Assembly: GCA_027483285.1 (NCBI GenBank)
Contig: JAIXUZ010000080.1
Coordinates: 1-39,567, forward strand
DNA length: 39,567 bases
Source: Bacteroidota bacterium
Lineage (GTDB): Bacteria; Bacteroidota; Bacteroidia; CAMBQF01
Reading direction: 5' to 3'
Of this stretch, positions 4,291 to 34,911 are shown piece after piece (positions within the stretch are counted from its first letter, which is position 1; every line of letters begins with the position of its first letter). Under the pieces are notes generated by a model. That model saw only the letters and a program-made list of their open reading frames with translations, searched no databases and had not been told where the DNA came from. The position numbers were made by a program, and so were the translations under genes.

Positions 4291-7200
4291 CTATCGTGTA
4301 ATAACAACCTTTTGCGTTGGCAAAACTTTGTTCTCCATAGAGAAGCTTACAAAGTACTGGCCTTGGGCAAGATTACCTAAGTCGAAGTCATAAATGTTAG
4401 CGCCTGCTTTAGGCTCAACAAACATAGACTCTACCAATTGTCCATAGTGGTTGTATATCATTATACGGCCACGGTCGCTGGTTGATAGGTTCATTGATAC
4501 ATTCAACCTGTCTTGCGCAGGGTTAGGGAACACACTGATAACATCGCTACCTTTAATAACACAAGATACTGTTACAGGGCTAAACACCTCATACTCGCCA
4601 TTATAGTCGGTTTGCATTAAGCGGTAGTAAGCTGTTCCTGCTAAAGGATACAGGTCTTTAGCGCTGTAGTTGCGGTAAGTGTTGCTATTGCCTGCGCCTT
4701 GTACCAAAGCAACGTTGTCGTAAGTTGCTAAATCTGCACTGCGTTGAACAGTAAAGAAGTCATTATTAATCTCTGTTGCAGTAGTCCAGTTAATGGTTAC
4801 AACATCATTCGTACAGCTAGCTTTAAAGTCCACCAGTTCAATTGGCAGCGGGCTGTTGCCCGAGCTTTCGCCATCATGAAGTACCCATGGCGAGTAGCGA
4901 GACACACCTGATGCTGTAACGGTGTTATCAGCAGCATTAGCTGTACTAACAATACCATACTCAGTTGGCAAATCCCATCCGCCAAGGCTATCTGGGCCTC
5001 CAGTTGCATTCCAACGTTGAGCTTTAAGGTTATCCTCTAATATTGATGAGTTACCTGAAAGGTCAGAGCTTGCGTATTTAAACGTCATATTTGATGTTGG
5101 ACGCGTAGTATAGTTATTGGCATCAATAATCCACCAACGGTCAAGTGTAGCATCGGTTCCAGTACCCGGGCCCTGGTCAAAGTTCATGTGCTGAACGCCA
5201 GATACCCATGGGGTATTGTCGTCACCAGTAGGGTAAGTACTCAACGTAACATTGCCTGCACCACTTTGAACGCCAGCGCCAGTTACGCTAAACGTAAATG
5301 GAATAAAATCGCCCGCTGCAGTACCAAATGGATATACGTAAGTACCTGTATTATTACCAATGTTCCATGCCAGTTTAGATGTACCGCCCGATGTTTCGCT
5401 AATTACATAACCACCAGCTACAATACCAGTAGTTGCTCCGTTTTTAACGTTAAAGGTGTATCCGTTAAGATCTAACACACCATCAACAGTTAAAACACCT
5501 GTACTACGTGTTGCTGCATTAGCAAGCAACTGTACTCTTGGGTTGTTGCTGCTGCTATTATTAACATTAAAGTTGTTAAAGTCTACAGCGCTATTATTTA
5601 CTTTAAACACCTGGCTAGCCGGCGTGCTGGCATTACCAAACTGGAATGTACCGCCAGTAATGGTTTTAGTACCTCCTGCCGCAATTACAAGGTCGTTACC
5701 TGTGCCGCCGTTAGCACGCTGGAAGAATATAGTACCACTGCTAATATTTAAATTGCTGGTAGCATCAAGGTCTAGTATAGCATTAGCATTATAGCTTGCT
5801 CCGGTAGTATTCAAAGTCATAGCACCACCCGTTTGGTTAATGCTGCTACCTGTGCTAACATAATTGCCGCCAACACTAACTATAGCACCGCCTAATGAAA
5901 GTGTAGACGATGAACTGTTGGTGTATTTACCGCCAATAGATACTGTTGCACTATTTGCATTTACTGTTGATCCGCTAGAGCTATAATCGCCAACTATTGC
6001 AATGGTAGCACCACTGTAGGTTACGGTAGATGATGAAGCATTGCTCCAGTTTCCTCCTACATTAAGAACGCCACCTGCAGCTGTAACGGTTGCCCCAGTG
6101 TTGGCTACGTTGCCAGTTAAAACGCTGGTACCACCTGCATGAGTGTAGGTAGCCGTGCTACTGTTTGTTAAATTATTAAGGCTATCCGTTCCGCTTATTA
6201 CACTATATAAACCATTGTTGGTTACGTTTAAACCATCAGCCCTAAAGTTACCCTGTAAAATATCGGTGGTAACCTCAACACCAGCTGTAGAAGCAATGGT
6301 TGGTCCATTGTACAATTCAAGGTCTGCTTTAACTTGGGCTAAACCATTTATTGGTTGCAGATTACCATATACTACAGTATTAGTTTCTATACTTAATAAC
6401 GGTGTAATATCGGTTCCTTTATCTACTCTCAGGTTATAAAATTCTTGTGGGTCTGTAAAGCCGGTTAAAATAACGTTACCTGTTCCTTTAAAGGTAACGG
6501 TACTAACGTTGTAGTTAAATGTACCGCTATTGTTCCATGTACCCCAAACATCTAAGTTTCTGGTGTTGTTAATAGTCATAATAGAACCAGAATTCAGGTT
6601 AATGCTGCGGCAAACAGCACCATTAGATGCAATAACCGGGTCAAAATCTGTAATAGAACCTGTTGGTATAGTAATATCTGTTGATGAAGTTGGTATACCG
6701 CCACCTAAGCACCAGTTACCTCCATCAAACCAGTTATCGCTTAAAGAACCTTTCCAGCTTCCGGTAGTAACAACGTAAACGTTTACGTCAGCACCAAAAT
6801 TCATATCAAGCGCTGTACAAGGGTTACGGCTGCCTATAATTTTATAGGTTTTATCATTAGCTAATGCACCTGTGCTAAAGCTTAATGTAGATCCGTTACC
6901 TGTTTGCGTTGCGCCTACGTTAACGTTATCGGTAGTATTGTATAGTTGATATACAGTACCTGGTTCAGAATTTACAAGCTGCACAGTACCACTTGTTCCG
7001 CTACATATAGTAGTAGTAGAAGTAACTATTTTGTTAATAGGTCCGGTTACAACTGTAACTGCCAGGCTATTACTTACAGTACTGCCACATATGTTGGTAG
7101 CAGTTGCTACATAATTACCTGCCGAAGCAACTGAAGTAATAAACGAAACAGGGTCCTGAACAGAATTGCTGTAGCTATTAGGTCCGGTCCAGCTCCATGA

Positions 7201-10200
7201 TGTTGCTCCAGTACCACCAGTGGCTTCTAAATCCAATGGTTGAGTTTCACATAAGTTTGCTGATGTTGCTGATGCTGTAACAGCAGAAGGAACTGCTGCA
7301 GTAACTGCAAGTGCTAAAGTGTTACTTGTAGCATTACCGCACACGTTTGTGGCTGTAGCTATATAGTTTCCACCCGAAGCTGCAACGGTATTAAAAGATG
7401 CAGGGTCTTGGCTGGTACTTCCATAGCCGTTAGGGCCACTCCAGCTCCACGATGTAGCACCTGTACCACCAGTTGCATTTAAATCAAATGGCGAACCAGC
7501 ACACATAGCTAAAGAGTTAGCTGATGCTGTAACTGCTGATGGAACTGATGCTGTAAGAGCTAATGTAATGGCGCTGCTTGAAGTGCTGCCGCAAACGTTG
7601 GTTGCGGTAGCAGTATAGTTACCTGCCGATGTTGCAGATGTGCTAAACGCGGCCGGGTTTTGGTTAGTATTAGTATAAGAGTCTGGACCACTCCAGCTCC
7701 ACGATGTTGCACCTGTGCCACCCGAAGCATTTAAATCGAACGATGCGCCGGTACATAATGATAATGAGTTAGCAGATGCTGTAACAGCGCTAGGGGTAGA
7801 TAATGCCAGGGCTAGTGCTAACGCGCTGCTTGAAGTACTTCCGCAGGCATTGGTTGCTGTAGCTGTGTAGTTACCTGCCGATGCTGCAACTGTGCCGAAC
7901 GATGCAGGGTCTTGATTTGAGTCTGTGTAAGAGTTAGGGCCACTCCAGCTCCACGATGTTGCGCCTGCGCCACCGCTGGCATTCAAATCGAACGCGCTGC
8001 CAACACATAATAACAATGAGTTTGCCGATGCTGTAACCGCACCTGGGGCCGCCGCCGACAATCCTAATGTTAATGTATTACTCGTTGTGCTGCCACAAAC
8101 GTTTGTTGCAGTAGCAACGTAATTACCTGCCGATGCTGACACTGTTGTAAATGCTGCAGGGTCCTGGTTAGTATTAGTGTAGCTATTAGGGCCAGTCCAG
8201 CTCCAAGAAGCTGCTCCAGCTCCACCGCTGGCATTCAAGTTAAATGAGTTGCCAACGCACAATGCCAATGAGTTTGCCGATGCTGTAACAGCAGATGGTA
8301 CCGATGTTACAACGGTAACAGTAACAGCCACATCGTTATTCATATTCACATCAGCACATGGGCTAACAGAGGCAACAATTTTAAACGTTTTAGTTGCAGT
8401 TAATGCACCGGTAGTGAACGTTAAGTTAGAGCCAGTGCCTGCTTGGGTTGCGCTAAAGGTATTATCAGTAACGTTCCAAAGTTGATAGGTAACGCCATTA
8501 TCAGAGCCTGTTAGCACTATATCTGAAGAACTACCTGTACAAATAGTTGGGGTTGATGCTGTAACAGTTCTTTGTGTTGGCACCGGTATTACGTTCCATA
8601 CAGTTTCAACCCAACCTGTTGGGTTAGGATCGCAAGATAGGTTAGCATTAGCCGTACGTTGGCTACGAATACGAACTATGCCTGCGCCTGATAAACTTGT
8701 TGTAGAAACAGAATTACCTGGTGTATAGGCACTATATGTGTTACCGCCATTTGTTGATACTTCAAAAACATCTGCACCACCAACACCGCCAGAACCAATG
8801 GTATTAACTGTTGCAGAAACACTAGTACCTGCACAAATATCGCCAGCTGTTGGAGTAACAGCCATTATCGGACCTACAGGGTCTGTTACAATTGTGATGG
8901 TAGCAAAACTTGCAACACTCCAACCACAACAATTGTGGCGTTCACGGTAACGTACTTTATAGGTACCTGCTGTAGTAAAAGGGCCGAAAGTGCCTGTTGT
9001 AGAACTTACGGGGGTAAAAGTTGGGGCACCAATATTAGTACCTTGATAAACTATCCATTCACGTTCTAAAATATTGCCAGTATCATAAGAACCAGAGCTT
9101 ATTGAAAAATCAATACTTGCACCTGCACACGCCGAAACAGAAGTTGCTGCAGTAGCACCAGAACCTTGCACAATTAACCCTACAACCGGAGCTGTGCGGT
9201 TATCGGCAGCTGTTCTTATATAGTTATTATAACCGGTATTTGTGCCAACCATTGGTATAGAATAGTTGGAAGAGGTTGTAGTAGCAAAAACTTTTACTGG
9301 TTGTTGGGCATTTGTATAGTTTGGTGTACCATCAGTAATATCATCTACAAAACGTAAATCTGAAGCACCGGGAGAACCGGGAAGGTTAAACGCAACTGCC
9401 GCGCCACGGTTAATATCAAGCTCTGAGTTAATACAGAATTTACCATTAATACCACCACGATTATACGTAATTACCATAGGCGATGCTGAGTTTGGTACCG
9501 AACCTACGTTAGGTGCATCGTTAAAAGAAACAGCAGACAACGTGCCACCTAAAGTTGGGCCAGATGTAGTAGTTGCACCTGCCGATGTTAAGTTGGCAAT
9601 TGCATACTCAATACCTGCTTTACCAGTACCACCGGCACCACCGGCACCACCGTTACCTCCTTTTCCAGAACCACCACCTTCGCCTGAATCTCCACTTCCA
9701 CAGTTACCCGTACCAGTGCCTAAACCAGCTGGGCCTGTTCCGCCACTGCCACCAGCGCCACCGGCACCGCCAGAACCAACATTTAATGCATTTAAATAAC
9801 TATCTGTTACAAGGCCGGTAGCACCATTGGCCCAAATAAATATGGCAAAAGTACCACCGCCGCCGCCGCCGCCGTAGCCGCCGCCACCGCCGCCGCCGCC
9901 GCTGCTTCCGCCGCCGCCGCCTTGGCCGCCATCCCTATCACATGTACCACTATCTGTAGAGCCGCTGCCGCCTTCGCCGCCGCCGCCGCCTTTGCCACCG
10001 CCGCCGCCGCCGCCATTAGTACCTTCTGTTGGTAAAAAATATCCGCCTGAAAAACTTACTGTACCAGGGGTGCCACCAGGATTACCGTTTGTGCCATTTA
10101 CACCTGCAGCACCAGCACCACCATTGTTACCATTAGAACAACCGCTAGAAACACCAGCATTACCAAAACCGCCACCGCCGCCGGTTGTTCCACCGCCACC

Positions 10201-11907
10201 GCCGGTACCACCAGGCGATGCACTGCCACCTGCGGAGCCGTTTGAACCACCCGTGCCATCGCCACCACTACCGGTATTTGTACCTGAACAACGACCTTGT
10301 GAGCCGGCACCGCCAGCACCACCATTACCACCTGCACCGCCTGCACCATTGGTGCCAAAAGCAGCGCCGCCGCCGTTAGGCCCAGTAGTTGCACCCGCGC
10401 CAGGAGAACTGCTTCCAGCTCCGCCACCGCCACCGCCGCAACCACTGCATCCCCAATAGCAATCGCAACCACCATTGCTACCTGCCGAACCTGTATTACC
10501 GTTGCCGCCCGGTCTACCCGCGGCACCAGTACCTCCATTAGCAGCATTACCCGATGTTATAGAGCAGCGGGAAATAACATAATTATCACACGTATTAGTA
10601 GCTCCATTTATGTATACACCATAATTAGAATAGCCATGGCCACTGCTTGTTATTGCTGTTGTATTGCCGGTAGTAATTGTTAAATCCAGCAATCGCCAGT
10701 TATCATCATTGTTTTCAGCAACAAAGCCAACAGCAGCACCATATAAAGTGCCTGATGTAATAACGCTAGCACTGCTAAAGTTAATGGTAGTGGTAACATC
10801 GCTTCGTTTGCTCCAGGTTTTTATACCTGATGTGGTAGATACATTAAAACCACCTTCTACAATAACGTTAGAAGCTAAATAAGCAGGGGTTGTTTCTGTA
10901 TATATACCACTAGCCATGCGTATATGTGTACGGCCACCAAAAGATGCTAAATTATTAAGTACATAAGTCAGGTCTCTAGCAGGGTTGTTTGGGCCTGCGG
11001 TTGTATTGTTAGGGCCTGTGCCATCAACATAAATAAAATCGCAGTTGGCTGCGCTGCAAAGAGGGTCTGTTGCCGCCAGGTAAGTAACCGTTATAGCACC
11101 TGCGGTACCTGTTACGTTAGGTGAAACTGTTGTTAAAGAAGAAAAATCTGCTGTTTCATTAGATGTAATCCTAACACGGTAATATTCTGTACCTACCGTT
11201 TGGGGTACAGTAAATGATGAGCCTGTTGCCCCTGAAATATCTACATAAGCTGAGCCATTCCAACGTTGCCATTGAAAAAAGCGGCCCAATGTCCAACTGT
11301 CAATACTATTGGCTGCAACTGTAAGTGTGTAAGCAGTACCAACGCACAAACTGCTACCCGGAGCAACCGGTGCTGTTGTTACTGTTGGTGCTACTGTAAA
11401 ACCCCATTTATAACTCCAATCATATCGCCAATCGCCAGTAGTACCGTCAGACGAACAACTTCTGGTTGTAGTATAAAAATGCCAGGTATAAGGGCCATTT
11501 GTTGTAATAGGGACAGTATTTCCGCCTCCACAGGTGCCGTAGCCTCCACAAGAGGCATCGTCAGCCGCTACATCATCTTCAAAACCATCAAAAAGGGTAC
11601 AAATACCACCGGTATTGTTTAATGTTAAACTTGGAGCGGCTGGTGTTAGTGCATAATTGAAATCGCCAGACCACCCACAAGTATAATTGTCCCTGCTAAC
11701 GTTCCAATCGTAATTATTACCATTAATTACAAACCTTGCCCGCCAGCGTGGGTCGGGGTTTCCTGCAAAAACCTCATCGCCACAGCCACTCTCGTTGTAG
11801 TAAAGGTCTTCGCCATCTGCCTCGACCCAAATATTATTTTGTGCAGTACTAGCAAGGCTAATGAATAGCATAAAGCACAGCAAAATGTTTGTAAATTTTA
11901 TTTTCAT
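4291..11907 (-). CDS. Giant (2538 aa) secreted mosaic surface protein. Order: N-terminal Cys/Trp-rich region, Ig-like domain, beta-helix + polyglycine module, Ig-like arrays, S/T/N/G-rich solenoid-like region, T9SS type A sorting domain.
   Basis: Single uninterrupted ORF. Signal peptide MKIKFTNILLCFMLFISLASTAQ. The C-terminus VFPNPAQDRLNVSMNL...GQYFVSFSMENKVLPTQKVVITR matches the T9SS type A CTD pattern. A preceding LPIELVDFKASC...INWTTATEINNDFFTVQRS...YYRLMQTDYNGEYEVFSPV domain is common in Bacteroidota surface proteins. Confidence 0.9.
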   Translation of the reverse strand: MKIKFTNILLCFMLFISLASTAQNNIWVEADGEDLYYNESGCGDEVFAGNPDPRWRARFVINGNNYDWNVSRDNYTCGWSGDFNYALTPAAPSLTLNNTGGICTLFDGFEDDVAADDASCGGYGTCGGGNTVPITTNGPYTWHFYTTTRSCSSDGTTGDWRYDWSYKWGFTVAPTVTTAPVAPGSSLCVGTAYTLTVAANSIDSWTLGRFFQWQRWNGSAYVDISGATGSSFTVPQTVGTEYYRVRITSNETADFSSLTTVSPNVTGTAGAITVTYLAATDPLCSAANCDFIYVDGTGPNNTTAGPNNPARDLTYVLNNLASFGGRTHIRMASGIYTETTPAYLASNVIVEGGFNVSTTSGIKTWSKRSDVTTTINFSSASVITSGTLYGAAVGFVAENNDDNWRLLDLTITTGNTTAITSSGHGYSNYGVYINGATNTCDNYVISRCSITSGNAANGGTGAAGRPGGNGNTGSAGSNGGCDCYWGCSGCGGGGGGAGSSSPGAGATTGPNGGGAAFGTNGAGGAGGNGGAGGAGSQGRCSGTNTGSGGDGTGGSNGSAGGSASPGGTGGGGGTTGGGGGFGNAGVSSGCSNGNNGGAGAAGVNGTNGNPGGTPGTVSFSGGYFLPTEGTNGGGGGGGKGGGGGEGGSGSTDSGTCDRDGGQGGGGGSSGGGGGGGGYGGGGGGGTFAIFIWANGATGLVTDSYLNALNVGSGGAGGAGGSGGTGPAGLGTGTGNCGSGDSGEGGGSGKGGNGGAGGAGGTGKAGIEYAIANLTSAGATTTSGPTLGGTLSAVSFNDAPNVGSVPNSASPMVITYNRGGINGKFCINSELDINRGAAVAFNLPGSPGASDLRFVDDITDGTPNYTNAQQPVKVFATTTSSNYSIPMVGTNTGYNNYIRTAADNRTAPVVGLIVQGSGATAATSVSACAGASIDFSISSGSYDTGNILEREWIVYQGTNIGAPTFTPVSSTTGTFGPFTTAGTYKVRYRERHNCCGWSVASFATITIVTDPVGPIMAVTPTAGDICAGTSVSATVNTIGSGGVGGADVFEVSTNGGNTYSAYTPGNSVSTTSLSGAGIVRIRSQRTANANLSCDPNPTGWVETVWNVIPVPTQRTVTASTPTICTGSSSDIVLTGSDNGVTYQLWNVTDNTFSATQAGTGSNLTFTTGALTATKTFKIVASVSPCADVNMNNDVAVTVTVVTSVPSAVTASANSLALCVGNSFNLNASGGAGAASWSWTGPNSYTNTNQDPAAFTTVSASAGNYVATATNVCGSTTSNTLTLGLSAAAPGAVTASANSLLLCVGSAFDLNASGGAGATSWSWSGPNSYTDSNQDPASFGTVAASAGNYTATATNACGSTSSSALALALALSTPSAVTASANSLSLCTGASFDLNASGGTGATSWSWSGPDSYTNTNQNPAAFSTSATSAGNYTATATNVCGSTSSSAITLALTASVPSAVTASANSLAMCAGSPFDLNATGGTGATSWSWSGPNGYGSTSQDPASFNTVAASGGNYIATATNVCGNATSNTLALAVTAAVPSAVTASATSANLCETQPLDLEATGGTGATSWSWTGPNSYSNSVQDPVSFITSVASAGNYVATATNICGSTVSNSLAVTVVTGPINKIVTSTTTICSGTSGTVQLVNSEPGTVYQLYNTTDNVNVGATQTGNGSTLSFSTGALANDKTYKIIGSRNPCTALDMNFGADVNVYVVTTGSWKGSLSDNWFDGGNWCLGGGIPTSSTDITIPTGSITDFDPVIASNGAVCRSINLNSGSIMTINNTRNLDVWGTWNNSGTFNYNVSTVTFKGTGNVILTGFTDPQEFYNLRVDKGTDITPLLSIETNTVVYGNLQPINGLAQVKADLELYNGPTIASTAGVEVTTDILQGNFRADGLNVTNNGLYSVISGTDSLNNLTNSSTATYTHAGGTSVLTGNVANTGATVTAAGGVLNVGGNWSNASSSTVTYSGATIAIVGDYSSSGSTVNANSATVSIGGKYTNSSSSTLSLGGAIVSVGGNYVSTGSSINQTGGAMTLNTTGASYNANAILDLDATSNLNISSGTIFFQRANGGTGNDLVIAAGGTKTITGGTFQFGNASTPASQVFKVNNSAVDFNNFNVNNSSSNNPRVQLLANAATRSTGVLTVDGVLDLNGYTFNVKNGATTGIVAGGYVISETSGGTSKLAWNIGNNTGTYVYPFGTAAGDFIPFTFSVTGAGVQSGAGNVTLSTYPTGDDNTPWVSGVQHMNFDQGPGTGTDATLDRWWIIDANNYTTRPTSNMTFKYASSDLSGNSSILEDNLKAQRWNATGGPDSLGGWDLPTEYGIVSTANAADNTVTASGVSRYSPWVLHDGESSGNSPLPIELVDFKASCTNDVVTINWTTATEINNDFFTVQRSADLATYDNVALVQGAGNSNTYRNYSAKDLYPLAGTAYYRLMQTDYNGEYEVFSPVTVSCVIKGSDVISVFPNPAQDRLNVSMNLSTSDRGRIMIYNHYGQLVESMFVEPKAGANIYDFDLGNLAQGQYFVSFSMENKVLPTQKVVITR
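5800..6160 (-). repeat. Roughly 20-aa periodic S/T/N/G-rich segment inside the giant CDS (solenoid-like)
   Basis: Successive units: VLNVGGNWSNASSSTVTYSGAT / IAIVGDYSSSGSTVNANSAT / VSIGGKYTNSSSSTLSLGGAI / VSVGGNYVSTGSSINQTGGAM. An aliphatic-x-aliphatic-G-G/D-N/K/D-Y/W motif recurs about every 20-21 residues. Confidence 0.65.
7033..8292 (-). repeat. Five tandem 252-nt (84-aa) Ig-like repeats inside the giant CDS
   Basis: Each unit starts AVTASA(N/T)S..(L/M)C and contains GG(A/T)GA(A/T)SWSW(T/S)GP...AGNY.ATATN.CG. I counted five units, each exactly 84 aa. The nucleotide motif ccagctcca(c/t)gatgt recurs at about 7191, 7441, 7692 and 7944, with a diverged copy near 8196. Confidence 0.9.
9610..10555 (-). 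other. Polyglycine-rich segment of the shared module (paralog 1)
   Basis: Runs from ...SITSGNAANGGTGAAGRPGG to GGAGGAGGTGKAGIEYAIANL. Includes runs such as GGGGGGGKGGGGGEGG and GGGGGGGGYGGGGGGGTFAIFIWANG. Confidence 0.85.
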
Positions 11908-16229: not shown

Positions 16230-17381
16230 ATGTCACTACGCATTCTCTGCGGGCTGCTTTTATGCGCCCTGTTAATGATTTCGTGTAACAACGATGATGT
16301 TGACACCTCTGCCACCGCCGGTCCTTATATTGCTAGCGCCGCGCCGGTTCTCCAAAACCCCGATACCCACAAAATTGTAATCAAAACCGACTCGCTGGCA
16401 AAGAAAGTGCGCCATTCTGTTAAGCCTAAAGATGTTACCGTAAAAGATGCGTTGAAAGACATGCGCTTTAACCCCGAAGCTGTTAAGCTATTTGTATCGT
16501 TAGGCAACAAAACCGGCGGGCAAACCTATTTTGCCAAAAACAGCAAGCTGGTAGCCCAAACCATTGTATCTATATTAGACAAACACACTACCGAAATGAC
16601 AGACGTAGTATTGCTGATTGACAAAACCGGCAGTATGGACGATGATATTGAGAATGTAAAGAAGAGCGCTACGCGTATTATAACAGCCCTTAAAAAATTT
16701 AAAAATATTCAACTGGGATGGGGTGCCTATGGCGACAAAAACGATGACCCTGCAAACTGGTTTCAGCTAAACAAACTTTCGGCCGACCTGGACGGTAGCC
16801 TTGATAAAATTAATGGTTTGTATACAGGTGGTGGTGGCGATTTGCCCGAATCGGTAAATGATGCTATTTATAAAACCATTGATGAAATGAACTGGAGGGC
16901 TGATGCCCGTAAAATGATTTTGGTAATTGGCGATGCCCATTCGCTTGAACCACCACTTGCCGACAGAAGCCTTAATGATGTGATTAAAAAATGTATCTCA
17001 TTGGCTATACATGTAAACCTATACCCTGTTGTTATAAGTACTGAAGATATTATGGGCGATTTGCATGATGACACCCCGAAATTTACTGAGCCTGAAGAAG
17101 AACCTACCGAAGATGCAAGGGCTACCATGCCTAAAACGGGCAATATTATCATTCGCACTTACCCCAACCCCAGCACAGACAATGTGTATATTGATTTAAC
17201 AGGGACAGGGCCTTATATAATAGACGTAAAATCATTACTTGGCAAAACCGTGACCTATGCCGAGGTAACCACCAACCGCTACACCTGCAACCTGCTTGAT
17301 ACGCCTGCCGGAATATATTTAGTTACCGTAACCGAAAAAAATACCGGAAAAACCGAGGTAAGGCAGGTGGTAAAAAAATAA
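16230..17381 (+). CDS. von Willebrand factor A domain lipoprotein with T9SS type A sorting domain
   Basis: Lipobox LLMISC. MIDAS-like motif VVLLIDKTGSMDDDI. vWA core ...ILVIGDAHS. C-terminus IRTYPNPSTDNVYIDL...GIYLVTVTEKNTGKTEVRQVVKK. Confidence 0.85.
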   Translation: MSLRILCGLLLCALLMISCNNDDVDTSATAGPYIASAAPVLQNPDTHKIVIKTDSLAKKVRHSVKPKDVTVKDALKDMRFNPEAVKLFVSLGNKTGGQTYFAKNSKLVAQTIVSILDKHTTEMTDVVLLIDKTGSMDDDIENVKKSATRIITALKKFKNIQLGWGAYGDKNDDPANWFQLNKLSADLDGSLDKINGLYTGGGGDLPESVNDAIYKTIDEMNWRADARKMILVIGDAHSLEPPLADRSLNDVIKKCISLAIHVNLYPVVISTEDIMGDLHDDTPKFTEPEEEPTEDARATMPKTGNIIIRTYPNPSTDNVYIDLTGTGPYIIDVKSLLGKTVTYAEVTTNRYTCNLLDTPAGIYLVTVTEKNTGKTEVRQVVKK

Positions 17382-17851: not shown

Positions 17852-18439
17852 TTATAATTTAAACCAGGTTTTTTCTAAACAAGCACGCAACATTAGTTTT
17901 GCGCGGTGCATTATAACCCAATAGTTAGACGGTGATACGTTTAATTCCTTACAAATATCATCGCTTTCCTTCTCCTCTAAAAATTTAAGGGTAATGGCGG
18001 TATGCCAGTTTGCAGGCAGTTTGCCTATACAGCTTTGCATAGCCAGCTGAAAATCCTTATCATCCAATATATTACCTTCTTCTAAACTCCATTGTTTGGG
18101 CTTAGCCTGCTTGCTCCAATGTCCGCCATCTTCAAAAAATAAATCAAGAAAAGAGCGGCTTTCATCGCCCTGCATAAGGCTGTTGCCAAAAACCTCGTAG
18201 CGTGTAGATGCCTTGCGGTAATGGTCGGCAATTTTGTTTTTAAGAATAGAGAACAACCATGTACGTTCTGATGAGTTGCCCTTGAAATTTTTAATACCGT
18301 TTAAGGCAGACAGAAAAGTTTCCTGCACAAAGTCTTCGGCAAGCTCGGCACTGCTGCTTTTAGAAAGGGCATAGCCATATAAATCATCTGCGTACTTATC
18401 CGTCCAATTCTCCGGATTTAAAGCCTGTTTTACTCCCAT
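17852..18439 (-). CDS. ECF-type RNA polymerase sigma-70 family factor
   Basis: Region 2: LYGYALSKSSSAELAEDFVQETFLSALNGIKNFKG.SSERTWLFSILKNKIADHYRK. Region 4: AITLKFLEEKESDDICKELNVSPSNYWVIMHRAKLMLRACL. The start is taken as the ATG at 18439; the track uses the TTG at 18445. Confidence 0.9.
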   Translation of the reverse strand: MGVKQALNPENWTDKYADDLYGYALSKSSSAELAEDFVQETFLSALNGIKNFKGNSSERTWLFSILKNKIADHYRKASTRYEVFGNSLMQGDESRSFLDLFFEDGGHWSKQAKPKQWSLEEGNILDDKDFQLAMQSCIGKLPANWHTAITLKFLEEKESDDICKELNVSPSNYWVIMHRAKLMLRACLEKTWFKL

Positions 18440-18540
18440 ACTCAATATGCTAAAGTAGGTAAATATGGCTTACACCAATTACTTTATTAAGGTTAGGTTA
18501 TTTAGTTCTGAAAAAATGATGAAATAACACTAACAATTAC

Positions 18541-18548: not shown

Positions 18549-18575
18549 TTACTTTAGGCCTAATGCCTATTGATT

Positions 18576-21500
18576 ATGTTATTGCCGAAACGTTTACTAT
18601 ATAGGTTTTATTTACCGTTAATTACTTTTTTGCTTTTTGGCTTTTTGGCCAGCGGGCAACAGTGTAATATTATATACATTACCCCAAATGGAAATGGGGC
18701 GGGAACCAAAGCAAGCCCTGCCGGTTTAGCGGGCGGCATTGCTCTGGCAGCGCCTGGCAGCCAGCTATGGTTAGCAATAGGTAATTACACTATTAATGCA
18801 CCGATAAATTTACTGGACAATGTTACGCTTGAAGGAGGTTTCGACCCTGCCAACAACTGGACAAAAGTAAACACTGCGCAAACTATAATTAACCGTACCA
18901 ATGCCAACCCGCAAACTAACCCCGAGCGCTTAGTGGCGGTATCATGCATAAACATAACGGGCTTTACTATACAAGATGTAACTATAAAAACAGCCAATGC
19001 GCTAGGTAATGGGGTAACCACTTACGGGGTTTACTTAAATGGCTGTTCTAATTTTAACATTAGCCGCTGCAATGTTACCGGCGGCAATGGCTCTACCGGC
19101 TTACCCGGCACCCCTGGAATTAACGGTGTTAATGGCGCCAACGGCACAGCAGGGCAAAACGGCAGCGAAGATGGTGGCGGCAATACCGGCGGTGGTGTTG
19201 GTGCATCCGGCTCATACCCGGGCAGTAGTTTTGGCGGTAATGGCGGCAATGGCGGCGCACGTGGCACCTACTCATTTCCGGCAGGAGGCAATGCTCCAAA
19301 CGGAGCAGCCGGCCAAAACGGCGGCGGCACTGGTAATGGTATTGGTGGCGTTGCGGGTGTAGGTAATTGCAATTTTATATCTATTGGTTGCGATATGGGC
19401 CCGGCAAACGTTGGCCAGCCCGGAACAGATGGCCTTGATGGCGCTAATGGCGCTAATGGCGCATCAGGAACCCCATCATTTGCAGGTGGCTTTTTTGTTA
19501 ACGGTACAGGGCAAAATGGCACTGCCGGAGCAAATGGCGGTGGCGGTGGCGGTGGTGGCGGTGGCGGTGCACAAGGTTGCATACCCAATGGCTTCTTCAT
19601 TCCTAACAGTAATGGTGCAGGAGCTGGCGGCGGCGGTGGCGGAGAGGGTGCCCAAGGGGGAGCTGGAGCTTTAGGTGGTACTGGCGGAGGTGGCTCTTTT
19701 GGCATTTTTGCCTGGGCAAACGGTGCCAGCGGACGTGTTAAAGATACTTATACATTCTCAGGCATACCCGGCCAGGGCGGTCTTGGTGGCGCACCAGGCG
19801 GCTTAGGCGGTAACGGTGGTAACGGCGGTAACGGTGGTGGCCCGGGTTGCGATATTGGTAGCGGAGGCAGGGGCGGCAATGGCGGCGATGGTGGCGATGG
19901 TGGTAACGGTGGTAATGGAAGTTTAGGCCTTAGCTTACCTATTTTTGAAGACCCTAATGCTACTGCCTTAGAACAATCTGATATGCGCACACCCGTAGAG
20001 CCGGTTATTAATGTGCTAAATACAGGCTGTACATTTTCTGATATTGATTTTTCTACTACTGCAACAGGTATAGTACAATGGTTTTTTGATGGGGGAACAA
20101 TTCCATTACAGGCTGTTGGCAACAACGTAACTGTGCAGTATACCACACAAGGGCGACATACGGTAACTATGGTACTTAATGGTGTACCTTACATATATAC
20201 AGACTTTGTAGGCATCTTCTCAAACGGTATACCTTACCTACCTACTATTAACCCATCTAACGATACAGTATGTTTAGGCGGCACATTAGACTTTACCAGC
20301 TCTTTTGTAGGTACTAATTACGAGTGGTGGTTAGAGGGCACTACACCTGCAACATTTAACGGGCCACAATACCAAACCCTAAATGGTGTGCAGTTTAATA
20401 CCCTGGGCGATTACCGGATTTTGCTACAAACAACGTCGCCGTGCTGCGGACGTTCTACCATAGATACTATTTTGATACACGTTGTGCCTTATGTAAATGC
20501 CGATGTTTTTGTATTTGCATCATCAACCAGCATTTGTGCAGGCACACAAGTAAACTTTGGCGCATCGCCGGTAAATGGTGGCAATAACCCTGTATACACA
20601 TGGACAGTTAACGGTGCAACCGTTGGCACCAATAGCAATACCTATAGTTCATCAACCCTAAATAATGGCGATGTTGTGGCCGTTAGCATGAGCAGTAACC
20701 TGCTTTGCGTAAACAACAACCCGGCAGCATCTGTGCCTATTGTAATGACGGTTAACCAGCCGCCTGTGCTAAACTGTAGCTCTATTGGGCAGTTTTTAGG
20801 TGCCCCTACCCAGTTTTCGGTTAACCCGGTTGGCTCTCAACCATTTACCTATGCCTGGGATTTTGGCGATGGTGGTATATCAAACCTGCAAAACCCGCCA
20901 CATACTTATGGTTCTACAGGCAACTATACCGCAACAGTAACAGTTACCGATGCCAATGGCTGCGAGGCTACCTGCAATGTACAGGTTACTATTAGCATAG
21001 CCCCGCAGGTTACAGCTTTATTTACAGGAAATATTACTGCTATTGGCTGCGGCACAGGTTCTGTTAGCTTTACCGACCAAAGCACAGGTGGCGTTATACA
21101 ATGGACATGGGACTTTGGCGATGGTGTTACCGATGCCAACCCAAACCCTACCCACAACTATACCGCACCCGGTTATTATGATGTTACATTAATAGCTTCT
21201 AACGGCGTATTAGCAGACACTTTGGTGCTACCTAACTTTATCTACATACCACCTCCACCGGTTGCAGAGTTTACCGCTTTAGACAGCATTGAATGTGAGC
21301 CCTATATTTTTAGGTTCTTAGACCAATCGTTAGGTGGTGTTACTGATTGGTTGTGGGATTTTGGCGATGGTAACACATCGATACTGCAAAACCCATCGCA
21401 TGAATATGCAGCACCGGGTAGTTACAACGTTACACTTACCGTAACAACGGCAGATAACTGCACGGCAACGCTTACCACACCCAATTTTATACAATACCTT

Positions 21501-22274
21501 GAACAACCTGAAGCAGGTTTCTTTACCCTTGACACTTTAATGTGCACAGGCGAGGCTATATCTATAACTGACACCTCTGTTGCAGCTAATAAATGGCTGT
21601 ATTACTTTGGCGATGGCACACCTGTAGATGTAAACCAAAACCCGATACATGTATACACAGAGCCGGGCATTTATACTGTTACCCAAATAGTAGAAAACTC
21701 ATCGGGCTGCAGAGATACTATGATTGCTACGCAGTACATAGAGATTGTACCTTACCCTGAGGCTAACTTTAATGCCGATACCTTTAAACTACAATTGCCT
21801 GACACCACGGTGCAGTTTTTTAACCTAAGCCAGTACTACGATTCGCTGGTATGGGTACTGGGCAATGGCAACACTACATGGGTTGATAACCCCGTAGGTG
21901 TTTACCAGGATTCTGGCATTTATGTTATTACCCTTATTGTAAGCAACAGCATTGGATGTGTAGATACTTTGCAAATACCACTGCAGGTTATAGAGCAAGA
22001 ATCATTCTTTGTTCCAAACTCATTTACCCCTGACGATGACTTTATAAATGACAACTTTAGTGTGTTTGGCAGGGGAATTGTTAGTGGAGAGATGTATATA
22101 TACGACAGATGGGGCCAGCCCGTGTTTACTACCCCCGACCTATTTACAGGTTGGGATGGTACAACCAAAGACGGGAAGGATGCCATGATTGGCGTATATG
22201 TATATGACATTAAGATAACGTGGTTTACAGGCCGGACGTTTGAAAAGCGTGGCACCGTAACACTTATCAGGTAA
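18576..22274 (+). CDS. Large secreted protein (paralog 2). Order: beta-helix + polyglycine module, CCG Ig-like domain, Ig-like domain, five PKD domains, T9SS type B (gliding-motility CHU_C-type) sorting domain.
   Basis: Signal peptide LLPKRLLYRFYLPLITFLLFGFLASGQQ. PKD cores: YAWDFGDGG..NPPHTY...GNYTATVTVTD, WTWDFGDG, WLWDFGDGN, YYFGDG, WVLGNGN. C-terminus: FFVPNSFTPDDDFINDNFSVFG....MYIYDRWGQPVF......GWDGT.KDGKDAMIGVYVYDIKI......EKRGTVTLIR. The track start is TTG at 18570; the ATG at 18576 is preferred. Confidence 0.9.
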   Translation: MLLPKRLLYRFYLPLITFLLFGFLASGQQCNIIYITPNGNGAGTKASPAGLAGGIALAAPGSQLWLAIGNYTINAPINLLDNVTLEGGFDPANNWTKVNTAQTIINRTNANPQTNPERLVAVSCINITGFTIQDVTIKTANALGNGVTTYGVYLNGCSNFNISRCNVTGGNGSTGLPGTPGINGVNGANGTAGQNGSEDGGGNTGGGVGASGSYPGSSFGGNGGNGGARGTYSFPAGGNAPNGAAGQNGGGTGNGIGGVAGVGNCNFISIGCDMGPANVGQPGTDGLDGANGANGASGTPSFAGGFFVNGTGQNGTAGANGGGGGGGGGGGAQGCIPNGFFIPNSNGAGAGGGGGGEGAQGGAGALGGTGGGGSFGIFAWANGASGRVKDTYTFSGIPGQGGLGGAPGGLGGNGGNGGNGGGPGCDIGSGGRGGNGGDGGDGGNGGNGSLGLSLPIFEDPNATALEQSDMRTPVEPVINVLNTGCTFSDIDFSTTATGIVQWFFDGGTIPLQAVGNNVTVQYTTQGRHTVTMVLNGVPYIYTDFVGIFSNGIPYLPTINPSNDTVCLGGTLDFTSSFVGTNYEWWLEGTTPATFNGPQYQTLNGVQFNTLGDYRILLQTTSPCCGRSTIDTILIHVVPYVNADVFVFASSTSICAGTQVNFGASPVNGGNNPVYTWTVNGATVGTNSNTYSSSTLNNGDVVAVSMSSNLLCVNNNPAASVPIVMTVNQPPVLNCSSIGQFLGAPTQFSVNPVGSQPFTYAWDFGDGGISNLQNPPHTYGSTGNYTATVTVTDANGCEATCNVQVTISIAPQVTALFTGNITAIGCGTGSVSFTDQSTGGVIQWTWDFGDGVTDANPNPTHNYTAPGYYDVTLIASNGVLADTLVLPNFIYIPPPPVAEFTALDSIECEPYIFRFLDQSLGGVTDWLWDFGDGNTSILQNPSHEYAAPGSYNVTLTVTTADNCTATLTTPNFIQYLEQPEAGFFTLDTLMCTGEAISITDTSVAANKWLYYFGDGTPVDVNQNPIHVYTEPGIYTVTQIVENSSGCRDTMIATQYIEIVPYPEANFNADTFKLQLPDTTVQFFNLSQYYDSLVWVLGNGNTTWVDNPVGVYQDSGIYVITLIVSNSIGCVDTLQIPLQVIEQESFFVPNSFTPDDDFINDNFSVFGRGIVSGEMYIYDRWGQPVFTTPDLFTGWDGTTKDGKDAMIGVYVYDIKITWFTGRTFEKRGTVTLIR
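19080..19925 (+). other. Polyglycine-rich segment of the shared module (paralog 2)
   Basis: Runs from VTGGNGSTGLPGTPGINGVNGANG to GGNGGDGGDGGNGGNGSLGL. About 43% Gly in the first 60 residues, counted by hand. Conserved islands: TPSFAGGFFVN and GGGGSFGIFAWANGASGRVKDTY. Confidence 0.85.
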
Positions 22275-22285
22275 AACAAAAAAAT

Positions 22286-22750
22286 ATGAGAGCATATTTA
22301 ATTGCCATAGCAGCCATTGGCTTAGTAGCTGTATCGTGTAAAAGTAAAAAAGAAATGACCGGCAACACAGCTAAAGCAGACAGTCTTCAGGTAGCAGACA
22401 GCATTGCTAAAGTTTTTGCTGACATAGCTATTGCCGATGCGCAAAACACACCACCAACACCCAACGATAGCATCCGCCTAAACGTATCTTTTTACAGCCC
22501 GGGTAGCGGTATTAACTACCGCGCTGCCCAATCGCTTAATAGTTTTTTAACTAAATACGAGGCAGCTAACCCGGGTGTAGTAACGGTTTATAAAACCGCA
22601 TGGGGCCGCGAGGGCGAAGTGGATTATTGCTTTAAAATGAACGACAAAACAAAAGGCGACGACTTTGTAAAACAGGTAAAAGACCTTTTAGCGGGGCAAG
22701 ACCGTATTAACTACAAAGAAAATACAACCTGCCGTAAGCCAAGAAACTAA
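22286..22750 (+). CDS. Hypothetical lipoprotein (154 aa)
   Basis: Lipobox GLVAVSC. Starts 12 nt after the paralog 2 stop codon. No family recognised. Confidence 0.6.
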   Translation: MRAYLIAIAAIGLVAVSCKSKKEMTGNTAKADSLQVADSIAKVFADIAIADAQNTPPTPNDSIRLNVSFYSPGSGINYRAAQSLNSFLTKYEAANPGVVTVYKTAWGREGEVDYCFKMNDKTKGDDFVKQVKDLLAGQDRINYKENTTCRKPRN

Positions 22751-24961: not shown

Positions 24962-27900
24962 ATGCCATTTCGTATTTTTATTACACTTTCATTTCTGTTT
25001 TTAAGCGGCATACTTTTCGCCCAGGAGTGTAATATTATTTATGTAACCCCTAATGGCGCTACCAGTGGTGTAGCCGGTACAAAAACTACACCTGCAAGCC
25101 TTGCATACGCTTTAACCTTAGCCAATGCCCCAACCAATAAAATACATATGGCGGCGGGTACTTATATCATATCGCAACCCCTTAGCCTTGTAAGCAACAC
25201 CACTATTGAAGGGGGCTTTAACAGCAGCTGGGATAAAACCAATAACTCTGCCACAACTATTCTACGCGACAATCAAAATGTGCAGCCAAACCCCTTACGT
25301 TTAATTGGCTTAACGGGTAATAACATTAACAACTTCCGTTTACAGGATTTAACCATAAGGGTACTTACAACTTTTGATAATTCAGTATCAACCTACACCG
25401 TTTACCTAAACGGCTGCTCTGATTACCAATTGGTACGGTGCAAGCTTATAGGCGGCAATGCGGGTAACGGAACCAACGGTACTAATGGTGTTAATGGCAT
25501 AGGTGGTACTGGTGGCGCAGCAGGCTTAAACGGCGATGAAAATGGGACATGCTGCACCAATGGCGGCGCCGGAGGCTCAGGAAGCTTTCCGGGTAGCAAT
25601 GCCGGAGGAACAGGTGGTAATGGCGGACAACGCGGAACCTATGTTTTCCCTACGGGAGGGCAAGCCTACAATGGCAGCCAGGGTACTCCGGGGCAGGGGC
25701 TTAATGCTGGTGGCAACGGTTTTGGCGGTATAGGTATTTTTACTGTTATCCTGTCGCTTAACTGCGACCGGACAGTTTCATCAGACGGAACTGATGGTAT
25801 TGGCGGTATAGATGGATTACCCGGAATAGCGGGTGGTAACGGAACATCATCATTCAGCGGTGGTTTTTTTGTTCCCGGTGACGGATTGCCAGGTAACACA
25901 GGCCTTAATGGTGGCGGTGGCGGTGGTGCCGGCGGTGGTGGGTCGCAAGGTGGCCTTGCACACGATATTTTATTTGGCTTACCTCCTAACACTAACGGAT
26001 CTGGAGCTGGCGGCGGAGGCGGGGGCGAAGGTGGCCAGGGCGGCACAGGAGCATCTGGCGGAACAGGCGGTGGTGGCGCATTTTGCCTTTACCTATACAA
26101 CAACGGTGCTAACGGACTTATAAAAGATTGCCAGTATACTGTAGGTTTTCCTGGCTTTGGTGGCCAAGGCGGCCAGGGCGGCATTGGTGGCACAGGCGGA
26201 ATAGGTGGTGCCGGCGGTGGGCAGTTTAACTGCGATGTTGGTGCCGGTGGCGATGGCGGAGCAGGTGGAAAAGGTGGTAACGGCGGAGCAGGTGGTGCCG
26301 GGGCTGATGGGGTAAGCTATGCTGTTTATGAAGATGGCGGAACACCCATACAACAATATAATATTAACGGCCTGCAGCAACCTATTGTACAGGTTAATTA
26401 CTCAGGCTGCACAGGTGTACCTGTTGAATTTTTTACCACTGCAACAGGCAGTGTAACCTGGTATTTTGGTGCAGGCGCCAGCCCTGCAACAGGCGTTGGC
26501 ACCACTGGCTTATGCCAGTTTAACACCACTGGCCGCAAAACATTTACAATGGTAAACAACGGCGTAGCTTACACCTTTACCGATTATATTGATATTTTTA
26601 ACAACCAGGCTAACCCAATACCATCTATTACCGTGGCCGATGACAGCCTTTGCGAAGGCGAAACAACAACACTGGCCAGCAGCATTGCATCAGACTCATA
26701 CAACTGGTTTGTAACAGGGCCTAACGGATATTTTGATATTGTTACGGGTGCCACTAACCAAACATTACCGGGCTACGTATTCCCCACACCGGGAAACTAC
26801 CGTTTTGTTTTGCAAACAATTAGCAACTGCTGCGGCCCATCATTTGCTGATACAGCTTTTGTGAATGTGGAAGACATATTGCAGCCTGTGGTAAGCATAG
26901 CATCGAGCATAGATACTATTTGCCAAAACGAAATTGTGGTGTTTACTGCCGAAGCTGATAGTGTAGGCGCTAACCCAGGCTACCAATGGTTTGTAAACAG
27001 CACCCCTGTAGGAGCAGATGCTCCGGCATACTCAAGTTCTAATATTGCCAATGGCGATGTAATTACCTGCCAGGTAACATCAAGCCTGGGATGCGGCACA
27101 GGCTTGCAGGCAACATCTAACAATGTATCAGTATATGTTATAGCACCGCCACAGCTTACATGCAATGCCGACTCTTTTATAACCGGGCGTCCTACTTATT
27201 TTGACACAGAGGTTACATCTGGCGGATTAGCCCCGTTTGATTATATATGGGACTTTGGCGATAACGCCAGCGGACAGGGGCCTAACTTATCGCATATTTA
27301 TGCCGAGCCAGGGCCTTACAGTATTACCGTTACGGTTACCGATGCCAACGGCTGCAGCAATACCTGCACGTTTGTTATTTCAGTATCGAGTATTCTGGCT
27401 GCCAACTACGACTTATCTGCTACTGGAGGTTGTCCGCCATTAACGGTTGACTTTACCAATAACAGTACCAATGCGGTAACCTATTTGTGGGATTTTGGCG
27501 ATGGTTCAACCTCTCCGCAGGAAAACCCAACACATACCTACAACTCGCCGGGCACCTACGATGTAACGCTATATGCCTTTGGCGTTAGTGGTAACGTGAG
27601 CACCAGCACGCCTAACCAAATAGCCATATACCCAACTCCAACGGCAAACTTTTTGGCGTTTCCTATTAACGTAGAAAACGGTAGCGACTCTATCCAGTTT
27701 ACCGATAACTCTTTTGATGCTACCACCTGGTTGTGGGATTTTGGCGACCCTGCATCGGGAGCAAACAATACCTCTACCCTACCCGCCCCAATACACTGGT
27801 ACGCAGGCAATGGTACCTACAACGTTACGCTGATTGTAACCAACACTTTTGGCTGTACCGATACAGTTAGCAAAAACAACCTGTTTGGTGTAAACGTGGG

Positions 27901-28186
27901 GCTTAATGAGCAAAACCAGCCGGTAAGCGGCCTACAAGTATACCCTAACCCTACCACAGGTAACCTAAACCTTAGTTTTACGCTAAACGAAAAAGGGCCT
28001 TTGAAAATTGATTTGTATAGCATTGATGGCCGCTTAGCCGCCCCATTATTTAATACTATGCAAAGCAACGCCGGTGAGTATAAACTTAATTACGCATTGC
28101 CCGCCGACCTGCAAACAGGCCTGTATTTGTTACGTATAGTACAAAATGGTAAGTTGGGTATTGCAAAAGTTAGTGTAGTGCGATAA
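24962..28186 (+). CDS. Large secreted protein (paralog 3). Order: beta-helix + polyglycine module, CCG Ig-like domain, Ig-like domain, three PKD domains, T9SS type A sorting domain.
   Basis: Signal peptide MPFRIFITLSFLFLSGILFAQE. PKD cores: YIWDFGDN, YLWDFGDGSTSPQENPTHTY, WLWDFGDP. C-terminus: LQVYPNPTTGNLNLSFTL...GLYLLRIVQNGKLGIAKVSVVR. Confidence 0.9.
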   Translation: MPFRIFITLSFLFLSGILFAQECNIIYVTPNGATSGVAGTKTTPASLAYALTLANAPTNKIHMAAGTYIISQPLSLVSNTTIEGGFNSSWDKTNNSATTILRDNQNVQPNPLRLIGLTGNNINNFRLQDLTIRVLTTFDNSVSTYTVYLNGCSDYQLVRCKLIGGNAGNGTNGTNGVNGIGGTGGAAGLNGDENGTCCTNGGAGGSGSFPGSNAGGTGGNGGQRGTYVFPTGGQAYNGSQGTPGQGLNAGGNGFGGIGIFTVILSLNCDRTVSSDGTDGIGGIDGLPGIAGGNGTSSFSGGFFVPGDGLPGNTGLNGGGGGGAGGGGSQGGLAHDILFGLPPNTNGSGAGGGGGGEGGQGGTGASGGTGGGGAFCLYLYNNGANGLIKDCQYTVGFPGFGGQGGQGGIGGTGGIGGAGGGQFNCDVGAGGDGGAGGKGGNGGAGGAGADGVSYAVYEDGGTPIQQYNINGLQQPIVQVNYSGCTGVPVEFFTTATGSVTWYFGAGASPATGVGTTGLCQFNTTGRKTFTMVNNGVAYTFTDYIDIFNNQANPIPSITVADDSLCEGETTTLASSIASDSYNWFVTGPNGYFDIVTGATNQTLPGYVFPTPGNYRFVLQTISNCCGPSFADTAFVNVEDILQPVVSIASSIDTICQNEIVVFTAEADSVGANPGYQWFVNSTPVGADAPAYSSSNIANGDVITCQVTSSLGCGTGLQATSNNVSVYVIAPPQLTCNADSFITGRPTYFDTEVTSGGLAPFDYIWDFGDNASGQGPNLSHIYAEPGPYSITVTVTDANGCSNTCTFVISVSSILAANYDLSATGGCPPLTVDFTNNSTNAVTYLWDFGDGSTSPQENPTHTYNSPGTYDVTLYAFGVSGNVSTSTPNQIAIYPTPTANFLAFPINVENGSDSIQFTDNSFDATTWLWDFGDPASGANNTSTLPAPIHWYAGNGTYNVTLIVTNTFGCTDTVSKNNLFGVNVGLNEQNQPVSGLQVYPNPTTGNLNLSFTLNEKGPLKIDLYSIDGRLAAPLFNTMQSNAGEYKLNYALPADLQTGLYLLRIVQNGKLGIAKVSVVR
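25450..26310 (+). other. Polyglycine-rich segment of the shared module (paralog 3)
   Basis: Runs from LIGGNAGNGTNGTNGVNGIGG to GGKGGNGGAGGAGADGVSYAVY. Conserved islands: TSSFSGGFFVP and GGGGAFCLYLYNNGANGLIKDCQY. Confidence 0.85.
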
Positions 28187-34882: not shown

Positions 34883-34911
34883 ATTCGCAAATCTATGCAA
34901 AAAGTTTGTTG

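Follow-up and report, generated by a model that had tools for sequence, protein, structure and literature searches.

A conserved module with a glycine scaffold, probably an ordered polyproline II-type bundle, in type IX-secreted proteins of Bacteroidota

Glycine-rich bundles of polyproline II (PPII) helices are rare in nature. They occur in antifreeze proteins, Obg, acetophenone/acetone carboxylases, phage gp38 and ALK/LTK, and are predicted for the PE_PGRS proteins (bioRxiv 10.1101/2023.11.25.568672; PMC13243192). The PE_PGRS bundles were predicted by AlphaFold with high confidence and were stable in molecular dynamics simulations (PMC13243192). The antifreeze proteins sfAFP (2PNE/3BOG) and Collembola GrAFP (7JJV) are two-layer bundles of glycine-rich PPII helices. 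In the literature searched, no paper links proteins of the type IX secretion system (T9SS) to glycine-rich PPII domains. Three large open reading frames (ORFs) for T9SS cargo proteins, referred to here as P1, P2 and P3, are present on a stretch of 39,567 nucleotides (nt) from a Bacteroidota bacterium (GenBank assembly GCA_027483285.1, contig JAIXUZ010000080.1; the whole stretch is called the window), and each encodes a glycine-rich segment. A preliminary description of the window had proposed that these segments may be ordered polyglycine-II lattices, similar to the glycine-rich domain of ALK/LTK or to the tip of phage gp38, rather than disordered linkers. The best explanation of the results, to which we give a probability of about 0.65, would be an ordered glycine-scaffold module with a packed PPII/polyglycine-II bundle, carried as the surface head of a T9SS cargo protein.

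The glycine-rich segments were found at the three places where they had been reported, as coding parts of the three ORFs (Table 1), and are 282-316 amino acids (aa) long. They are the C-terminal halves of a conserved module and not stand-alone linkers. The module spans ~430 aa, in which an N-terminal β-helix half of ~140 aa is followed by a glycine half of ~290 aa. On alignment, P1, P2 and P3 were colinear over ~480 aa at 41-50% identity, and the motifs C..IY, EGGF, W.K, D, Y.VY.NG.C and R.C are common to their non-glycine halves. With the P2 module as query, 261 proteins were recovered from the database at E ≤ 1e-5. In all 120 relatives listed by phmmer, query aa ~29-460 mapped as one block, located at the N-terminus of T9SS proteins of 650-850 aa or internally, behind other domains. 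When 1.84 billion cluster representatives were searched with a profile, 2734 clusters (50% identity) matched at E ≤ 1e-30. Most of the best 150 of these matches covered the whole module, which was N-terminal or lay near residue 550 in proteins that reach 6000 aa. When one genome per species was scanned with the three-module alignment, 52 loci were found, all in metagenome-assembled genomes (MAGs) of uncultured Bacteroidota from lakes, groundwater and bogs; Crocinitomix catalasitica is one named cultured carrier. The source annotations of these proteins give PKD or sorting-domain names only, or hypothetical, and no model of Pfam, NCBIfam or PHROGs covers the module in the P1-P3 proteins, segments or modules. 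A further search for homologs, started from P1, yielded no relatives closer to P1. An exact look-up of P3 among public assemblies gave no record. In six other Bacteroidota MAGs (locus pairs L001/L013, L003/L020, L006/L027, L012/L014, L008/L021 and L004/L019), P2-like and P3-like genes adjoin on a single contig, with identities as low as ~45-50%; the P2/P3 paralog pair is thus old and its linkage conserved.

The segments have a hybrid pattern, made up chiefly of GXX/GGX triplet runs with a central poly-glycine core. It is the triplet runs, not the poly-glycine runs, that hold most of the glycine. The poly-glycine runs measure 6, 5, 5, 7, 5, 5, 8 and 7 residues in P1, 11, 6 and 4 in P2, and 6, 4, 6 and 4 in P3, so that the runs of 5-9 glycines described at first are true of P1 (5-8) but not of P2 and P3. 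The order of the glycines has a period of three that exceeds composition-preserving shuffles in all three segments (z from 6.3 in P1 to 8.5 in P2; Table 1). The hydrophobic motifs reported earlier were all recovered in the P2 and P3 translations: SFGIFAWANG is at P2 aa 376-385, TYSFPAGG at 233-240 and SFAGGFFV at 303-310, and TYVFPTGG is in P3. The same is true of the conserved cysteines. C274 and C427 of P2 are invariant in the alignment of the three paralogs, and cysteine columns are seen family-wide at aa 32, 159, 167, 337 and 340 (64 relatives).

The register of the glycines is maintained across the family. Among 64 relatives, there are four stretches in which every third residue is a near-invariant glycine and indels are almost absent. 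Two of these (P2 aa ~172-198 and 279-300) have the form GXX and two (398-422 and 430-453) the form GGX, and the in-register runs extend over 4-10 triplets. At least 80% glycine was found in 92 of the 282 columns, and the entropy of the non-glycine columns was 2.42 bits. A, N, S, T and D account for 60% of the X positions and proline for 4.3%. The lengths between landmark residues were compared in 247 relatives. In 83% of them R166 and G198 are exactly 32 aa apart, and in 94% S376 and N384 are 8 aa apart; G282 to S376 ranges over 86-96 aa and N384 to G453 over 67-75 aa. The sole freely varying sub-region is G198 to G282, at 57-142 aa. Steps of ~18 aa in length, as from insertions of whole helix-hairpin units, had been suggested by 64 sequences; the pattern vanished in 247 sequences and the idea was dropped.

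Orthologs were then compared for the free length and sequence drift that would mark a linker, and apart from the G198 to G282 sub-region neither was seen. Orthologs at 85-95% identity differ by 0-1 indels in the glycine segment, and by none in that of P3. Those at ~47% overall identity retain 102-109 of ~120 glycines. In them the glycine segment is 54-62% identical, compared with 42-54% for the flanks, a figure that is inflated by composition. Between 34 and 71% of the codons for identical residues differ synonymously. Thus, two features expected of a glycine-rich PPII bundle are present in the segments: high glycine in GXX/GGX triplets or poly-glycine runs, enough for at least two PPII turns, and core glycines that are conserved and intolerant of indels.

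At the DNA level, local G+C rises to 0.50-0.57 at the three glycine segments, with a strong strand-specific GC skew. The DNA repeats in the segments are short only, and the longest are CCG/GCC runs that encode poly-glycine in P1. These lie at 9857-9930 and 9961-10014 (-) as imperfect trinucleotide arrays of ~22 and ~18 copies, which could be prone to slippage. Tandem expansion of DNA was considered as the origin of the segments and was rejected, the arrays being short. An antisense ORF of 155 aa (9992-10459, +) within the P1 segment almost certainly arises mechanically, from the long runs of GGN codons on the opposite strand. Neither a tRNA nor an Rfam element is involved. P1 also has a cysteine-rich insertion, GGCDCYWGCSGCGGGGGG, at aa 479-496 (window ~10420-10473, -), with four cysteines in 10 residues; it is lacking in P2, P3 and most relatives.

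AlphaFold2 (AF2) models were built for P2 aa 28-480 with the 64-sequence alignment and, separately, for P1 aa 436-790 without the β-helix half. The P2 module was predicted with a mean predicted local distance difference test score (pLDDT) of 89.8 and a predicted template modelling score (pTM) of 0.79. In its glycine half pLDDT is mostly 90-98, and DSSP assigns neither helix (H) nor strand (E) outside the short strands and hairpins TYS, SFA/FFV, SFGIFAW, RVK/YTF and SLPIFE. About 200 residues have pLDDT >90 and no strand assignment. Confidence dips at aa 198-247 and 268-277, in the sub-region of variable length, and at 338-347, a P2-specific insertion missing from most relatives. The glycine-only model of P1 had a pLDDT of 75 and a pTM of 0.75, and its strands fall on the homologous motifs SFS/YFL, TFAIFI, LVT/YLN and EYAIAN. 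It is high at aa 446-475, 596-645, 666-685, 706-725 and 746-765 and low only over P1-specific insertions at aa 506-595; the cysteine-rich insertion GGCDCYWGCSGCGGGGGG has a moderate confidence only, at pLDDT 68-76. Since the module is conserved, the lengths of its sub-regions are nearly fixed, its glycines are retained by orthologs in the face of synonymous divergence and both AF2 models are confident, the results support segments that would be ordered rather than disordered linkers, as was first proposed.

The N-terminal half of the module belongs to a known fold. The first ~145 residues of P2 were modelled as regular strand rungs at pLDDT 95-98. Searched against PDB with Foldseek, the full P2 module matched only right-handed β-helix enzymes among the top 50. 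These include Pel9A (1ru4, E 4.7e-4, probability 1.00), 5olr (1.2e-3), 2ntb (4.6e-3) and RbmB (9ozl_A, root-mean-square deviation 3.4 Å over 126 columns); the enzymes represented are Pel9A, rhamnogalacturonan lyase, pectin methylesterase and RbmB. P1-P3 themselves gave no Pfam match over this half at E ≤ 10, and one homolog (P0004) matches PF12708 at E 2e-6. Membership in the right-handed β-helix class, by the structural match and by PF12708 on the homolog, applies to the N-terminal half only. Q30, C32, E88, W97, K99, D136, Y152 and R166 are nearly invariant. The ~140 N-terminal aa share their fold with the lyases and esterases Pel9A (1RU4), RbmB (9OZL) and PemA (1QJV), but the module has only about three rungs, a TM score of ~0.2 over its whole length and no catalytic residues identified. 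The glycine scaffold has no counterpart in these enzymes.

A fold can be proposed from these features. The first ~140 aa form a short right-handed parallel β-helix. In the ~290 aa that follow, the GXX/GGX runs and the central poly-glycine core would form many short left-handed PPII/polyglycine-II helices, tightly packed. The invariant glycines would make up the core of the bundle, because only glycine permits such close backbone-to-backbone packing. Four short β elements (TYSFP, SFxGGFF, SFGIFxW...V.D.Y and the terminal L.LPIF) would pin the bundle, probably with the help of the conserved cysteines through putative disulfides. The X positions (for the most part A, N, S, T and D) and the one sub-region of variable length would present an exposed, variable surface. 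Polyglycine-II helix packing, as suggested in the preliminary description, stands as the best reading of high pLDDT, a DSSP state that is neither helix nor strand and a glycine at every third residue; the packing itself we infer, from confident structure that is neither α nor β, the exact period of three and the precedent of PE_PGRS (PMC13243192). Polyglycine-II-type order of the glycine half is on these grounds well supported, if indirectly.

Several points weigh against this proposal. P1 aa 506-595 and P2 aa 198-247 and 268-277 are at pLDDT only 47-83 and coincide with the sub-region of free length (57-142 aa), so that part of each segment may be loosely structured. AF2 confidence on low-complexity sequence may be over-optimistic, and identity in glycine-rich alignments is inflated by composition. 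High pLDDT with a DSSP assignment of 'other' is compatible with PPII helices and is no proof of them. The P1 glycine-only model gave 0 Foldseek matches at E ≤ 10 in PDB, and all its matches in BFVD were non-significant (best E 0.05, TM 0.12). The latter were glycine-rich, collagen-like, mycobacteriophage tail and 'PE-PGRS'-named proteins and were not used as evidence.

Among described PPII bundles, sfAFP resembles the module in its pattern. The sfAFP sequence (100% identical to 2PNE) has a glycine period-3 z of 13.5. It shares with the module ~45% glycine, the GXX/GGX register, small or polar X residues, cysteines and the strings GVNG, GTAG and GGNGGNG. In hhalign the family aligned to sfAFP with a probability of 73% over 32 columns, which reflects composition and periodicity and not homology. 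The two differ in that sfAFP is a stand-alone eukaryotic protein of 81 aa with six helices, whereas the scaffold of the module is ~290 aa, bacterial, T9SS-secreted, fused to a β-helix and interrupted by four hydrophobic hairpins and the poly-glycine core. PE_PGRS proteins resemble the module as long, bacterial, surface-associated GGX-rich domains (GGAGGxGGNGG-like) with loops that carry hydrophobic residues (PMC13243192). They differ in secretion (ESX/type VII compared with T9SS), in the fused domain (an α-helical PE domain compared with a β-helix) and in phylum; this likeness is one of description, and both structures are predictions. The RTX-type calcium-binding β-roll (GGXGXDXUX, HemolysinCabind) does not describe the segments: no Pfam match was seen at E ≤ 10 and the glycine period is 3, since the 9-nt DNA repeats correspond to one GGX triplet and the periodicity is of three residues.

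The glycine half could instead be ordered without being PPII, either as an irregular glycine-rich solenoid that continues the β-helix via very short bridges or as some other compact coil fold. Such a continuation would agree with the right-handed β-helix at the start of the module, with scattered single bridge residues assigned by DSSP in the glycine part and with the absence of any PPII-bundle structure among the Foldseek matches. We consider it unlikely. The glycine period is 3, not 2, and no period of rung length is seen; ~200 residues are confident and have no strand assignment; the 247 relatives show no 18-residue or other quantised steps in length; and the GXX/GGX pattern fits known PPII bundles (PMC13243192).

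That the segments are disordered low-complexity spacers, whose AlphaFold confidence is an artefact, appears very improbable. In three of four sub-regions length is fixed among the 247 relatives, and close orthologs have 0-1 indels amid abundant synonymous change. The glycine half is better conserved than the folded domains that flank it and keeps its hydrophobic motifs and cysteines, and the models reach pTM 0.75-0.79. The spacer explanation gains from the extreme composition, from the slippage that could affect the P1 poly-glycine arrays and from the one sub-region that is free in length and lower in pLDDT, but the DNA repeats are short only.

The GXX runs might also be collagen-like and trimerise the protein by a triple helix, for which we see very little room. 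The first stretch does contain 8-10 unbroken G-X-Y triplets, for example GNGSTGLPGTPGINGVNGANGTAGQNG, and the top BFVD matches in Foldseek were collagen-repeat proteins, although non-significant. Against this, no Pfam Collagen match was obtained at E ≤ 10, the runs extend over at most 10 triplets and are broken by hairpins and poly-glycine, proline occupies just ~4% of X positions and the model of the monomer is compact and confident.

The relationship to ALK/LTK and phage gp38 proposed in the preliminary description was not upheld. Neither the P1-P3 segments nor the whole modules gave a Pfam match of any kind at E ≤ 10, the ALK_LTK_GRD model PF12810 included. A fragment of human ALK (aa ~816-1025, 100% identical to 7MZW), which served as positive control, matched PF12810 at E 1e-5 (26.1 bits), so the model is able to detect glycine-rich members. 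With hhalign, a family alignment of 83 sequences gave a probability of 0.4% against the ALK fragment and 0.9% against gp38 of S16 (HQ331142). No PHROGs family was matched at E ≤ 1, and tblastn against 50,697 phage records gave no match. Engineered GGS linkers, or nothing, were all that sequence searches of PDB yielded for the three-module profile and for the P2 segment. The glycine-only model found no match among the ALK/LTK ectodomains 7LS0, 7N00 and 7NX0 in Foldseek, which may be insensitive to PPII bundles. ALK (27% glycine, period-3 z 0.5) and gp38 (35%, z 0.8) lack the period of three. Likenesses of a general kind are present. The ALK/LTK domains are extracellular and ordered, with poly-glycine runs of 5-8 that lead into aromatic strands, and share a possible role as a ligand-binding head, but in ALK the domain is intertwined with a TNF-like β-sandwich, and an EGF-like domain comes after it. 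The S16 gp38 tip (6F45) is likewise a conserved glycine scaffold that bears variable segments at the distal end of a fibre-like protein, but it is ~120 aa with ten helices, and conserved glycine motifs that alternate with hypervariable segments are found in the module in a generic sense only. As profile, hhalign, PHROGs, tblastn and glycine-period tests were all negative, the segments are not members of either family. True but divergent homology to PF12810 or to T-even gp38 tips is extremely unlikely, given also that the flanks are a β-helix and PKD/Ig domains and not TNF-like/EGF or gp37-binding domains, and the aromatic strands after poly-glycine (GTYSF/GTYVF, compared with GGGGGGGATYVF of ALK) and the alternation of conserved glycines with variable stretches amount to a superficial likeness.

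All three proteins have the architecture of T9SS cargo, with a C-terminal sorting domain and a hydrophobic N-terminus that was read directly from the sequence. Between the module and the sorting domain each has an array of PKD or Ig-like domains (Pfam: Ig_2 in P1, E 1.5e-11; PKD_4 in P2, E 4.8e-68, and in P3, E 1.2e-44). Predicted cleavage of the signal peptide leaves an N-terminal glutamine in each case (P2 ASG|QQC, 18570-18660; P3 FA|QEC, 24962-25030; P1 TA|QNN, 11840-11907). In P2 and P3 the module begins at this predicted mature N-terminus with Q-x-C, in which the glutamine and the cysteine are nearly invariant in the family. Secreted proteins of Bacteroidota follow an N-terminal glutamine rule, with formation of pyroglutamate, and the Q-x-C start is consistent with it. 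As the module starts at the predicted mature N-terminus in P2 and P3, no other part of the chain lies as far from the C-terminal sorting domain. It would sit on a PKD/Ig stalk that ends in the T9SS sorting domain, and so would most likely be a rigid, compact surface head for binding. Judged by domain architecture, a binding or adhesin head would be the most economical function. The ligand-binding head on a T9SS adhesin of the preliminary description is plausible and fits the domain order.

An extended form of the PPII/polyglycine-II proposal, in which all its parts hold jointly, is quite improbable. The module would then be an undescribed fold in which a right-handed β-helix is joined to a polyglycine-II lattice that ranks among the largest in nature (~290 aa; a rough estimate from run lengths gives perhaps 15-25 helices). 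It would be widespread as the distal T9SS head in Bacteroidota of freshwater, groundwater and bogs. Its Asn, Ala, Ser and Thr residues would make up a flat, repetitive surface that binds a regular, lattice-like target, for example ice (as sfAFP does), crystalline polysaccharide or mineral, and not a discrete ligand.

Table 1. Positions in the window of the three T9SS cargo ORFs, the two halves of their modules and their sorting domains.
Feature	Position	Strand	Evidence
P1 ORF, 2538 aa T9SS cargo with internal module, Ig_2-like repeats and type A sorting domain	4291..11907	-	ORF list and translation; Pfam
P1 type A sorting domain, aa 2459-2536	4300..4533	-	Pfam PF18962 E 5.2e-11
P1 glycine-scaffold half, aa 451-766	9610..10557 (in frame; 9610-10555 in the preliminary description)	-	46.8% Gly, period-3 z 6.3
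P1 module N-terminal half, aa 285-450, homologous to the P2/P3 β-helix halves	10558..11055	-	Colinear alignment; fold inferred from P2 model
P2 ORF, 1234 aa T9SS cargo: signal peptide, module, six PKD domains, type B (CHU_C) sorting domain	18570..22274	+	ORF list, Pfam, NCBIfam
P2 module β-helix half, aa 30-170, starting at the predicted mature N-terminus Q-Q-C	18657..19079	+	AF2, Foldseek
P2 glycine-scaffold half, aa 171-452	19080..19925	+	42.9% Gly, period-3 z 8.5
P2 type B (CHU_C) sorting domain, aa 1148-1231	22011..22262	+	Pfam PF13585 E 5.3e-12; TIGR04131 E 1.1e-7
P3 ORF, 1074 aa T9SS cargo: signal peptide, module, three PKD domains, type A sorting domain	24962..28186	+	ORF list, Pfam, TIGR04183
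P3 module β-helix half, aa 22-162	25025..25447	+	50% identical to, and colinear with, P2
P3 glycine-scaffold half, aa 163-450	25448..26311	+	41.7% Gly, period-3 z 7.8
P3 type A sorting domain, aa 993-1069	27938..28168	+	Pfam PF18962 (Por_Secre_tail) E 3.1e-9; NCBIfam TIGR04183

The 39.6 kb of the window hold five T9SS cargo genes (4291-11907, 16230-17381, 18570-22274, 24962-28186 and 29762-31669), all of whose products have a C-terminal sorting domain: three are the module proteins, one is a VWA-domain protein and one a glucose/sorbosone dehydrogenase. Among them are housekeeping genes, such as those for TatC, ExbB/ExbD, an M24 peptidase and an amino-acid kinase. The neighbouring genes gave no clue to the function of the module. 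A gene for a sigma-70 factor of the extracytoplasmic function (ECF) type (Sigma70_r2, r4_2; 17852-18445, -) is divergent and ~125 bp upstream of P2, and a regulatory link between the two is possible. No Pfam match was obtained for 22286-22750 (+), an ORF of 154 aa directly downstream of P2, for 33812-34900 (-) and 35837-36373 (-), or for 11055-11907 (-), which encodes aa 1-284 of P1 and precedes its module. In the stalk of P1, aa ~1205-1492 are encoded by tandem DNA repeats of 252 nt (84 aa) with 74-76% matches (window 7432-8293, -). These encode part of five Ig_2-like repeats ('PSAVTASANSL.LC.G..F.LNA.GG.GA.SWSW.GPN.Y...'), and the array is separate from the glycine module.

The module would fit best as a new member of the class of glycine-rich PPII bundles, one that is abundant, unannotated and fused to a short β-helix. 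If this is true, T9SS surface proteins of Bacteroidota would be a new and abundant source of glycine-rich PPII bundle domains. Annotation would cease to dismiss such regions as low-complexity linkers. The module, at ~440 aa, would also provide protein designers and T9SS researchers with a concrete, expressible unit.

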